From a virus (lineage: Duplodnaviria > Heunggongvirae > Uroviricota > Caudoviricetes), in the IMG/VR virus record IMGVR_UViG_3300017766_004476, positions 76,413 to 112,741 of that record: a stretch of 36,329 nt of DNA. One strand, given 5' to 3'. A program made the translations under genes and the position numbers. The notes under the pieces were generated by a model. That model did not search any database, had not been told where the DNA came from, and was given only the letters and a program-made list of their open reading frames with translations. Positions 20,449 to 35,731 of the stretch are shown here, piece by piece. Each line of letters starts with the position of its first letter. Positions within the stretch are counted from its first letter, which is position 1.

Positions 20449-20874
20449 TGGTGGACCCGGCGAGAGTTGAACTCGCGTGCTAAACTTAATTCTACCTTAC
20501 ATTGTACAAGCTTATTCTGTTATTATACAATCACTGACTAGAACAGACACCACCCAGTAATCGTTTCCTAAAATTGGATAGAAAGAAACCAAATTAGTAA
20601 AGTGTTTCTAGCTTTCTAATGTTACAAGATTTACTTTATTAGAATCAAGTAGTCCCGGCGAAACAGCACTAGGCCATTACGACTTGAGGTTGAGCAACGA
20701 ATGCGCCCTTGATGCTGCGGACGAATCCTGCAACAGAGTTTGCAACGGTGACACCTGCATTATTTGCATTTTTAGCATTTAATTTTTTACCACGAGAGTT
20801 TTAACGAGGCCAACGTAGTCTCCTCGGCTTGTGGTCACGATATAATTACCTTTAGTCGAAACCAGTACGAGCCC
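20449..20874 (-). ncRNA. ssrA: transfer-messenger RNA
   Basis: 5' GGGCTCGTACTGGTTTCGAC; 3' GCGAG-TTCAACT-CTCGC-CGGGTCC-ACCA; G3-U70 alanine determinant; internal tag frame 20669-20776 after AAAAAATTAAAT. Confidence 0.93.
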
Positions 20875-21644: not shown

Positions 21645-22500
21645 TCGGCGTGAGAATACCGCTTGTTAGTTAGGTCTTTTATTCGATTATTACCTCCTTG
21701 CGAGAGGCTTTCCGAACTTTTCCACGCTTCACAGCGTATCCTAACAGTGCTGCCTTTTTTAGAGTGAGGCTTTAACACTCTTCATCATAACACCTTCAAC
21801 CGTCATTCTACCGCCAACCTTGCGAGCTGTTCGAGGGAATTACCCCCTACGTGCGAACTCAGATTAATCATCTCAGACCTTGCGAGTCTTCGACAACCTC
21901 AGTTACCCTTGCGAGCCTAAGGCTTAAGCACCTTCATGCTATGATAGGAACCGGCTTTGCGTTTTTGCTATTAGATTAATACAATTTAATTTTTTTGCAC
22001 TATACAGTGATGTGCGATTCCCTGCGTTTCATAACCTTTTGGATTACAAAATGCGCAACACCACATAACTTTCCCTTACGGGTACTCATCGATACTTTGA
22101 AATTCAGGGTATTGTAAAGCAGCACCCCTCTTTTCGCGTAATGATCGTAAGCTCTTACTTGTTATCGTTCGAACCCACTATCTGTGCTTTAGTCTTTAAC
22201 TTGCGATGTTTGGCATAAACTAGTGTTCTCGGCGCTACCGTTAGAAGTCTTATGGCACCAGCGTTGCCCATGCCTTAAAACCGTTTCTAATTCCATCTTC
22301 GAGTATAGCTCAACCTTTTGAGTTAAACTTACAAGACTTACACTTTGTATAAATGTCCTATTCGTTAAATAGGCGCGGAACTGTATAGAGTTCACGCTTT
22401 AAATACCCTTACGGATATCTATCTTATCCCTTGCTAAGCTACCACCTACCAAGAAACCCTCCTGCGAGGTAAGGATGTCATACCACCCTTAATATTTGAC
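21645..22500 (-). ncRNA. large structured ncRNA, GOLLD-like (boundaries approximate)
   Basis: About 850 nt without a credible ORF, higher GC than the genes; four exact CTCGCAAGG GNRA-hairpin cores (21696, 21818, 21878, 21907) plus CCGTAAGG hairpins near 22075 and 22408; runs straight into tRNA-Trp. Confidence 0.6.
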
Positions 22501-28065: not shown

Positions 28066-28142
28066 GGTGGGACTAGTGGGATTTGCACCCACACTGCCGA
28101 GCTTCTCAGACTCGTGACTCCTTCTAGTTGGTCTATAGTCCC
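28066..28142 (-). tRNA. tRNA-Leu(GAG), short variable loop
   Basis: GGGACTA/TAGTCCC, CGAGT-CTGAGAA-GCTCG, GTGGG-TGCAAAT-CCCAC. Confidence 0.8.
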
Positions 28143-28146
28143 ATTT

Positions 28147-28371
28147 AACACAGCCGTAGCCAGAATTTTGTTTTATCCTATCATTTGACTAAGCACCAAC
28201 CCGGACCTACCATAACGAGAAGCACTACTCATCGGTCCTGTTTGGCTTGCATCTACTATTTGTGGTATTAACGAGTAAATTTCATTCGCCACTACTTTAT
28301 ACTCTCCCATCAGCTGCTTTGATGTTCTGAACTTCCTCAGATATTTCTATCCGCGATAGGTCGCTTATGTT
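28147..28371 (-). ncRNA. rnpB: compact RNase P RNA
   Basis: CR-I GAGGAAGTTCAGAA and CR-V ACAAAATTCTGGCTA form a complete 8-bp P4 with the bulged U; P2 CCTATC/GATAGG; P3 CGGATA-GAAA-TATCTG; P5 CATC/GATG; P6 AAGCA/TGCTT; GCAAGCCAAA and GGTCCGGGTTGGTGCTT match the P15 region. Confidence 0.85.
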
Positions 28372-29134
28372 AAATTTTCTTTAAGCCGCATTCATGACAA
28401 ATATATCCATCCCATGCAGGAAAGCCACATTGTTCACAACTTTTAAGTACTTCCTGAGATTCGTTAATGTCCTTTTCTCTAGTTGAGACTCCTGGTGACT
28501 TTCGAGGTTCTCTAATATCTACCCCAGCCGCACGTAAATGCAAATTGACTTCTGAATCATGCAGAGTTGGGTCATTTGTTTCTGCATCATTACACATCTT
28601 ATCTAAACCAGCTTGTTGAAGCCTGCGAGTCTGCTCTTCACCTAAACTCACTAATGCAGCTCTGAGTTCTTCTTTAGGAACTTCTGCTACTTCACATCCC
28701 GGATCAGGATATCCTGGATGCTTTTGAACGTTTGTATAATCTAAATTGTATCCTGTTCTAGATTCTTTAATACGAGGAAAGATACAATTAATAGTGTCTT
28801 TCCATTTTTTCTTACATTCTTCTACATTTATATTACCGTAAATGTGTTGTGCTTCAGTTATATATTCCTCACCTATCTCAAGTAGGGAGTTATATAGATC
28901 TTCTCGAGGTATTGGTATGAGATGGTGGCTACTCACCATTACTTTAGCATCGCATGATTCATCTGCTGGTTGCTCTACCCTTTTCATGAAAAGATCATGA
29001 GCAATCTGACTATAACAGCTATTGCAAATATGATACTTCCAAACACTTCCGGTAATCTTATCAGGTGGAGAAAATAACAAACCACCTGGTTCGTTTATCT
29101 CTTTATGACACACATCACAATTAACTTTTAACAT
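28370..29134 (-). CDS. hypothetical protein with N- and C-terminal zinc-ribbon motifs
   Basis: CDVC...CNSC and CEQC...CHEC; start moved to MLKVNC because the longer frame begins in a tRNA. Confidence 0.65.
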   Translation of the reverse strand: MLKVNCDVCHKEINEPGGLLFSPPDKITGSVWKYHICNSCYSQIAHDLFMKRVEQPADESCDAKVMVSSHHLIPIPREDLYNSLLEIGEEYITEAQHIYGNINVEECKKKWKDTINCIFPRIKESRTGYNLDYTNVQKHPGYPDPGCEVAEVPKEELRAALVSLGEEQTRRLQQAGLDKMCNDAETNDPTLHDSEVNLHLRAAGVDIREPRKSPGVSTREKDINESQEVLKSCEQCGFPAWDGYICHECGLKKI

Positions 29135-29177
29135 AATCGTAATATAAATGTTCTCTCTCAGATTGCAATTTATTAAT

Positions 29178-29255
29178 TGGTACTTCCAGTGAGATTTGCA
29201 CTCACACATCCATGTTTTTGAGACAAGTGACTCCTGCTAATTGGTCTATGGAAGC
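29178..29255 (-). tRNA. tRNA-Leu(CAA), short variable loop
   Basis: GCTTCCA/TGGAAGT, loop CTCAAAA, ACCA end. Confidence 0.8.
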
Positions 29256-29431: not shown

Positions 29432-29506
29432 TGGCTCCTCCGGCTGGTAACGCTCCAGCAACTCTTGTTTCAGAGACAAGCGTAGTGACTTCTATACTAC
29501 AGAGGA
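29432..29506 (-). tRNA. tRNA-Gln(CTG)
   Basis: TCCTCTG/CGGAGGA, CTTGT-CTCTGAA-ACAAG, GCCA end. Confidence 0.85.
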
Positions 29507-31347: not shown

Positions 31348-31421
31348 GGTAGTCCTTGTCGGTAACGCTCCGACATCCTTAGATTGAGAATCTAATGTAT
31401 TTACTTCTATACGAAAGGACC
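31348..31421 (-). tRNA. tRNA-Glu(CTC)
   Basis: GGTCCTT/AAGGACT, TTAGA-TTCTCAA-TCTAA. Confidence 0.85.
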
Positions 31422-32373: not shown

Positions 32374-32447
32374 TGGTAGGAAATGAAGGTAATGCTCCCT
32401 CGTCCACAGAGTGTAAATCTGGTGTTCTGCTTTTGAACTAATTTCCC
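32374..32447 (-). tRNA. tRNA-Val(TAC)
   Basis: GGGAAAT/ATTTCCT, loop TTTACAC, ACCA. Confidence 0.85.
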
Positions 32448-35656: not shown

Positions 35657-35731
35657 GGTCGGAATAGAGAGACTTGCACTCTCAGCCTCCTGTCTCCAAA
35701 ACAGGCCGTCTACTATTGACATTATATTCCG
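35657..35731 (-). tRNA. tRNA-Pro(TGG)
   Basis: CGGAATA/TATTCCG, CCTGT-TTTGGAG-ACAGG. Confidence 0.8.

Follow-up and report, generated by a model that had tools for sequence, protein, structure and literature searches.

A strongly reduced RNase P RNA encoded within a phage tRNA array, with covarying relatives in other viral genomes

The final 36.3 kb of a 112.7-kb IMG/VR viral contig (IMGVR_UViG_3300017766_004476, positions 76,413 to 112,741; CheckV completeness 65 %), hereafter the window (36,329 nt in its entirety), harbours on its minus strand a miniature, phage-encoded RNase P RNA of 233 nt (28143–28375, with RNA position 1 corresponding to 28375). RNase P RNA, the RNA enzyme by which newly made tRNAs are trimmed, belongs to the small number of ribozymes that are universal; to our knowledge, published descriptions of it concern cells and organelles only, and not viruses. 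No description of a phage RNase P RNA was found in the literature searched, including the huge-phage paper whose genomes carry the RNA. That this stretch is a real RNase P RNA, albeit a strongly reduced one, is borne out by a full-length covariance-model match, by the presence of core motifs, by compensatory variation in about 60 relatives and by a setting amongst tRNA genes of the same strand, whilst its catalytic activity is an inference. The original prediction, of a phage-encoded minimal RNase P RNA at 28147–28371, is upheld on these grounds; its location was correct, and only its limits require revision, as helix P1 can be extended by 4 nt on either side. All window coordinates given below are on the minus strand.

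Amongst Rfam families, the archaeal model RF00373 (RNaseP_arch) matches the RNA end to end (28145–28373, model positions 1–288) in a scan by E-value, with 44.3 bits and E-values of 3 × 10−11 in the 701 nt searched and 1.1 × 10−12 in the whole contig. This score is below the curated (gathering) cut-off of 84, and at Rfam gathering thresholds no match is returned at 28143–28375. Comparison with the Rfam covariance models does not, therefore, refute the prediction, though the match it provides is sub-threshold. The alignment to RF00373 spans P1, P2, P3, GAGGAA with the 5′ strand of P4, P5, GCAAG, P15/P16, GCUUAGUCAAAU and ACAAAAUUCUGGCUAC, and leaves the specificity-domain block unaligned. The models for bacterial A, bacterial B and Pyrobaculum type T RNAs (RF00010, RF00011 and RF02357, respectively) have no match in the window at E-values up to 10. 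A model constructed from 29 relatives, with the window excluded (R1), recovers the RNA at full length (28142–28375, model positions 1–205) with 144.3 bits and an E-value of 7 × 10−39, this being its sole match within the window. Taken with the Rfam E-values, this result from a model blind to the window excludes chance resemblance. Under R1, E. coli M1 RNA yields only a weak local match (9.2 bits), and the minimum-free-energy fold of the window RNA is not unusual (z = −1.33).

Relatives were found by scanning three degenerate DNA patterns over IMG/VR, the last of which fixed only L15, CR-IV and part of CR-V, with no constraint on the inner bases of P4 or on any position 5′ of L15. This last pattern returned 70 stretches in viral contigs, many of them on contigs of 200–494 kb, and the removal of duplicates and chance matches left 53–62 distinct RNAs (about 60) of 180–369 nt. 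Rejected as chance matches in coding DNA were loci L005, L008, L009, L011, L012, L014, L016, L018, L022 and L023, as well as L025–L029, L032–L034 and eight of the 11 matches obtained from 185,579 cellular genomes (one per prokaryote species). The three real cellular matches are all on MAG contigs. The RNase P RNA stretch of JBAZIW010000001.1 (L097), a 362,763-bp contig in a Candidatus Paceibacterota MAG, is identical to that of L004, the IMG/VR huge-phage contig IMGVR_UViG_3300029288_000055, which is likewise 362,763 bp in length; L097 probably represents a phage genome that was assigned to a bacterial bin. A stricter pattern, with GGCTWC and the window's own CR-IV fixed, proved too strict and found no relatives, and nothing was returned by BLAST of the window RNA, or of 16 kb around it, against GenBank phages, by BLAST of L061 against phages, or by a related-locus search of viral contigs with two flanking proteins.

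Other members of the family score 54–201 bits under R1, with matches in the 735-kb phage LR756501.1 (153.8 bits), the 635-kb phage LR745206.1 (148.6 bits) and the cultured Stenotrophomonas phage vB_SmaS-DLP_6 (102.4 bits). The DLP_6 copy (L104; KU682439.2, 105771–106021) occupies an unannotated gap between the hypothetical CDS AAY80_165 and tRNA-Arg-CCG and, in scans of wider stretches, matches the bacterial model RF00010 over its full length (54.7 bits, E-value 5 × 10−14). When the 291 nt of L104:2280–2570 are scanned alone against Rfam, no match is obtained for the same RNA, which is probably an edge effect. One family thus spans copies best fit by the bacterial model and copies best fit by the archaeal one.

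Pairing is maintained across these RNAs despite extensive sequence change. The P4 5′ strand, which the search left unconstrained, is complementary to the 3′ strand at 8 of 8 positions in 50 of the 55 candidates; amongst relatives, P4 occurs in more than 20 sequence versions, with 99–100 % of cells forming pairs. Unguided RNAalifold analysis of 30 sequences recovers P1, P3, P4, P5, a helix within the specificity domain (S-helix), a P12-like stem, P15, P16 and P17, with double (compensatory) changes in 30 of the 41 pairs. For a type A structure drawn by hand, with the crossing helices P2, P4 and P6 included (1750 cells counted), 87.3 % of cells pair, compared to 61.0 % in column shuffles (none of 500 reaches the real value) and 35–45 % when partners are slid by 1–3 columns. 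The covariation score is similarly distinct, at 0.695 versus 0.205 for shuffles and at most 0.146 for slid partners. In a covariance-model alignment of 62 unique sequences, the paired fraction is 95 % for P2, 93 % for P3, 99 % for P4, 99 % for P5, 88 % for P6, 93 % for the S-helix, 93 % for the P12-like stem, 99 % for P15 and 84 % for P16. As MAFFT misaligns the P15 region of E. coli M1 with respect to the phage RNAs, only identities in CR-I, CR-IV and CR-V were used.

Judged by motif and covariation, the RNA retains the complete catalytic domain of bacterial type A architecture, namely P1–P5, with a bulged U in P4, J5/15, P15–P17 with the GGU, and the P6 pseudoknot. P1 pairs 28362–28375 with 28143–28156 (RNA positions 1–14 with 220–233), as delimited by pair counts; its inner pairs covary (GC/AU/UA/CG), and its outer part is paired in 74–75 % of cells. 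The P2 5′ strand, CCUAU (28356–28360), pairs with AUAGG at 28177–28181 (RNA 16–20 with 195–199), and is 98–100 % paired in 30 sequences, with CG/UA/AU/GC exchanges. The P3 hairpin (28338–28353; RNA 23–38), placed by the Rfam alignment, has 5 bp and a 6-nt loop; amongst relatives it ranges from 10 to 57 nt and is 89–93 % paired, with compensatory changes. CR-I (28325–28338; GAGGAAGUUCAGAA) comprises GAGGAA (J3/4) and the P4 5′ strand, AGU-U-CAGAA, in which GAGGAA, the bulged U and the next C are invariant in relatives and correspond to E. coli G63, G64, A65, A66, U69 and C70. The opposing strand lies in CR-V (28157–28171), which consists of ACAAAA, the P4 3′ strand UUCUGGCU and a final A, and which is defined by P4 pairing in relatives; here ACA.AA..GG.UA is invariant, equivalent to E. 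coli A347–A349, A351, A352, G357, U360 and A361. P4 itself (RNA 43–51 with 211–218, bulged U46) is fully paired in the window, as had been predicted, and its outer pairs differ from those of E. coli M1 in a compensatory manner (A-U to G-C, and G-C to U-G).

CR-IV, the J18/2 equivalent (UAGUCAAAUGA, 28181–28191), is aligned together with CR-V by the Rfam model, and its invariant AG..AAAUG corresponds to E. coli A328, G329, A333, A334, U335 and G336. P5 is formed by GAUG (28250–28253) and CAUC (28321–28324; RNA 52–55 with 123–126), is 99–100 % paired, and displays UA/AU/GC/CG exchanges. The region 28195–28249, defined by covariation and the invariant GGUU, then contains J5/15, P15, P16, P17 and the loop L15. 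J5/15 (GCAA) is invariant in relatives, as is the GGUU of L15 (GGGUU, 28198–28202; RNA 174–178), the GGU of which binds the 3′-CCA end of tRNA. P15 (RNA 130–132 with 179–181) is 98–99 % paired, and P16 connects RNA 138–142 with 169–173. The 3′ strand of P6 (28220–28224) lies in the P17 loop and pairs with 28315–28319 (RNA 57–61 with 152–156); its core pairs read GC/AU, CG and UA/CG/AU, and it is 88–93 % paired. P1, P2, P3, P5, the P6 pseudoknot and P15/P16, all of which had been proposed, are therefore present and covary in relatives. The accompanying P17 is a more qualified case: by inspection it forms six pairs in the window (RNA 143–148 with 157–162), but it is poorly aligned across relatives.

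As anticipated, there is no P18, and 2 nt occupy the position where it would lie, immediately upstream of CR-IV; the same position holds 25–29 nt in L007 and L013, about 33 nt in the DLP_6 copy and a long insert in the 735-kb phage LR756501. P8/P9 and P13/P14 are also absent. The specificity domain, estimated beforehand at about 60 nt, consists of 67 nt between the P5 strands (28254–28320), within a family in which this insert varies from 40 to 153 nt (median 47). It contains the P6 5′ strand, a short P7-like stem, a P10/11-like stem (UGG/CCA), a P12-like hairpin and the joints GGGAG and CGUUAAUACC. The S-helix (87–93 % paired) and the P12-like stem (90–93 %) both display compensatory changes, and G69, A110 and C111 (RNA numbering) are invariant. 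In full-size RNAs, CR-II and CR-III of the specificity domain make contact with the tRNA elbow. No model aligns the GGGAG and CGUUAAUACC joints to either region; these conserved joints flank the covarying P12-like stem, sited as in full-size RNAs, and are by inference the CR-II and CR-III equivalents. In type A RNAs, tertiary contacts between the domains are made by P8, P9, P14 and P18, all of which are missing here, and because of this loss folding and activity of the RNA alone may be weak.

The genomic setting is one of tRNA genes. tRNA-Leu(GAG) (28066–28142; identified by ARAGORN and Rfam) begins at the base after the extended P1, the final base of which is its position −1, so that the RNase P RNA forms its 5′ leader; this tRNA has U at −1 and G at +1. 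Adjacency to tRNA-Leu(GAG) had been foreseen, with an intervening gap of 4 nt that does not exist once P1 is extended. At least 16 tRNA genes are found on the minus strand of the window, the same strand as the RNase P RNA. Across the family, tRNAs are present at 42 of 53 loci, all on the strand of the RNase P RNA; a tRNA starts no more than 40 nt from the P4 3′ strand (right after P1) in 15 of the 53, and one ends just before P1 in 11. In 38 of the 53 relatives no tRNA abuts the RNA, and at 11 loci the stretch examined contains none whatsoever. A U at −1 and the CCA end are the tRNA features read by J5/15 and L15; their occurrence in the window tRNAs (U at −1 in 13 of 16, CCA encoded in 10 of 16) fits the retention of these two elements. 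CCA is encoded by nearly all tRNAs beside L031, L040, L061, L048, L067 and L078, the window's closest relatives, and is not encoded at most other family loci (overall, 125 of 393 tRNAs encode it); the L15 GGU is invariant in both groups.

It had also been suggested that a small specificity domain might suit tRNAs with unusual elbows. Non-canonical T-loops do occur in six of the 16 window tRNAs, and are of two kinds, UGCAAAU/UGCAAGU (with G at position 55) and AGCGUUA/AGCAUUA (28068–28142, 29181–29255 and 35659–35731; 29435–29506, 31350–31421 and 32377–32447); the other ten have the usual UUCRA T-loop. Canonical T-loops nevertheless predominate beside family members (343 of 393 distinct tRNAs, and 32 of 33 beside the closest relatives L031, L040 and L061), and the suggestion is consequently unsupported as a general explanation. 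The small specificity domain is a family trait, rather than an adaptation specific to odd elbows.

Upstream of the RNA is a Cys-rich ORF of 279 aa (28370–29209), the stop codon of which (UAA, 28370–28372) lies inside the P1 5′ strand, in agreement with the prediction that the RNA starts at this codon. The encoded protein has several CxxC pairs and a zinc-ribbon-like end (CEQCG...CHECG). It belongs to no Pfam or PHROG family, and no relative was found in viral contigs or, by tblastn, in the family loci; as it has no counterpart at any other locus, it was rejected as a conserved protein partner. Flanking ORFs in general are not conserved beside the RNA at other loci, most ORFs of the contig have no known family, and PHROG scans of six large ORFs gave no taxonomic placement of the phage. 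No promoter-like or terminator-like site was found on the minus strand between the ORF, the RNA and the tRNA, nor was a promoter-like site found directly upstream. RnpA (PF00825) is absent from all six frames of the whole 112.7-kb contig, which extends an absence previously noted for the window, and was not found in five RNA-carrying huge-phage genomes, each at least 98 % complete.

Other structured RNAs accompany the array. A GOLLD RNA (21647–22064) scores 184.7 bits, which exceeds its cut-off, and a tmRNA (20449–20874) has an unusual tag of 32 residues; both share the strand of the RNase P RNA and are located upstream of the tRNA array to which it belongs. In L015 and L031, too, tmRNAs occur near the RNase P RNA. 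In L091, a phage that likewise has a miniature RNase P RNA, a match to an HDV-like ribozyme (RF02682; 1366–1434, plus strand; 40 bits versus a cut-off of 44) begins at the base following a tRNA (1282–1365).

With regard to known systems, the phage RNA resembles bacterial type A RNAs (RF00010; E. coli M1 RNA, rnpB, 377 nt) in P1–P5, P15–P16–P17, the P6 pseudoknot, the L15 GGU and the J5/15 GCAA, in the identity of CR-I, CR-IV and CR-V bases to those of M1, and in that its DLP_6 relative matches RF00010 over the whole length. It differs in being 233 nt long rather than 340–420, in lacking P18, P8, P9, P13 and P14, in its 67-nt specificity domain, in having no RF00010 match of its own, and in its location in a phage tRNA array without an adjacent rnpA. 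Archaeal type A RNAs do not possess P13/P14 and P18, and retain P15–P17 and P6 (PMC4919922). The window RNA shares each of these traits, which accounts for RF00373 being the best-scoring Rfam model; unlike the archaeal RNAs, it also has no P8/P9, scores under 84 and is carried by a bacteriophage. The RF00373 match is best explained as model fit, and not as archaeal ancestry. That the carrier is an archaeal virus was considered and rejected, given the presence of tmRNA and GOLLD on the contig and the bacterial host (Stenotrophomonas) of a relative.

A naturally small RNA of about 200 nt, with the specificity domain nearly gone, is known from Pyrobaculum (type T, or type P; RF02357; Lai et al. 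2010 as cited in PMC4919922). That RNA consists of the C-domain only (PMC4919922); it is archaeal and chromosomal, and works with several archaeal proteins. The window RNA is similarly small by nature, but keeps a structured 67-nt specificity-domain stalk and bacterial-style L15, P16, P17 and P6, and has no RF02357 match. Pre-tRNA is cleaved by the isolated bacterial C-domain whether RnpA is present or not, at lower rate and affinity (PMC4919922). The same set of helices suffices for pre-tRNA cleavage in this isolated domain and in engineered minimal P RNAs; these are laboratory truncations, whereas the phage RNA represents a natural gene family under selection. Minimal P RNAs based on Mycoplasma fermentans were reportedly engineered by Siegel et al. 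in 1996.

The best explanation of these observations, and one that is probably correct, is that this is a real miniature RNase P RNA gene of a large phage, working with host RnpA on phage pre-tRNAs by a mechanism that is itself inferred. The RNA would be co-transcribed with the same-strand tRNA array, and its 3′ end would arise when RNase P cuts at G+1, where tRNA-Leu(GAG) begins. The freed RNA would assemble with host RnpA, which is proposed as the partner because the phage encodes none; the host is unknown, and use of its RnpA is inferred only. The complex would then remove the 5′ leaders of many phage pre-tRNAs, supplementing or replacing host RNase P during infection. Published findings on the isolated C-domain, on the Pyrobaculum RNA and on the exchange of subunits between species lend this mechanism support (PMC4919922). 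Sequence comparison demonstrates that the phage tRNA array contains an RNase P catalytic domain that is conserved and covaries; cleavage, expression and the use of RnpA are inferences from it. Weighing against this explanation are the sub-threshold Rfam score, the lack of any match to RF00010, RF00011 and RF02357, the loss of all interdomain tertiary contacts, the ordinary folding energy, the weak match of R1 to M1 and the lack of a promoter-like site directly upstream.

In a different, though unlikely, reading, the RNA is a catalytically active RNase P that is independent of host RnpA. It would act by itself, or together with a phage protein, so far unrecognised, that substitutes for the missing RNA–RNA contacts in the manner of archaeal and eukaryal proteins. 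Consistent with this, no RnpA is found in six phage records, most of the contig's ORFs have no known family, and the interdomain contacts are all lost, for which archaea and eukaryotes compensate with extra proteins (PMC4919922). The regions bound by RnpA in bacterial holoenzymes (P2–P3, J3/4, CR-IV and CR-V) are, however, the best-conserved parts of the RNA, no flanking ORF is conserved beside it elsewhere, and RNA and protein subunits can be exchanged from one bacterial species to another (PMC4919922). A conserved protein-binding face in a phage without RnpA would also suit a non-catalytic mimic, which titrates host RnpA or pre-tRNA and so shuts down or retunes host tRNA maturation without cutting, and for which the lack of stabilising tertiary contacts speaks as well. 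We regard this as somewhat more doubtful again, given that elements serving only substrate or chemistry (the bulged U of P4, the J5/15 GCAA, the L15 GGU and the specificity-domain joints) are invariant or covarying, and that the genes sit in tRNA arrays that themselves require RNase P.

The start of tRNA-Leu at the base next to P1, and the 15 of 53 relatives with a tRNA within 40 nt, might suggest a cis-acting leader that acts only on the attached tRNA, as a self-cleaving conjugate or folding chaperone, and not as a general enzyme. This is very improbable, as the majority of relatives have no abutting tRNA, some loci have none in the stretch examined, and the absence of a linker would hold the cleavage site at the end of P1, away from P4. 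Finally, the sub-threshold Rfam score and ordinary folding energy might point to the decay of an rnpB captured from a host, or to fortuitous similarity; this reading is refuted computationally by the independent-model score (7 × 10−39) and by covariation, with about 60 diverged copies keeping every helix by compensatory change and the core motifs invariant.

Beyond the preferred reading of a miniature RNase P RNA working with host RnpA, a more far-reaching proposal can be entertained only tentatively. Under it, the phage ribozyme takes over tRNA maturation, either capturing host RnpA or needing no protein, and prioritises phage pre-tRNA arrays as host RNA synthesis collapses; it may also tolerate altered elbows. 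Should this be true, it would constitute the first RNase P encoded by a virus, as well as a bacterial-type ribozyme minimised by nature. The existing copies point to a blind spot in annotation, as all of them fall under Rfam cut-offs and in unannotated gaps, including in the genomes of DLP_6 and the 735-kb phage. As DLP_6 is a cultured phage, the question is directly testable. The family would supply dozens of natural answers to the question of how far a bacterial-type RNase P can be reduced in size, of use for work on structure and mechanism. More broadly, a conserved half-sized family in big phages would show that, with their tRNAs, viruses also bring in a part of the machinery that processes them.
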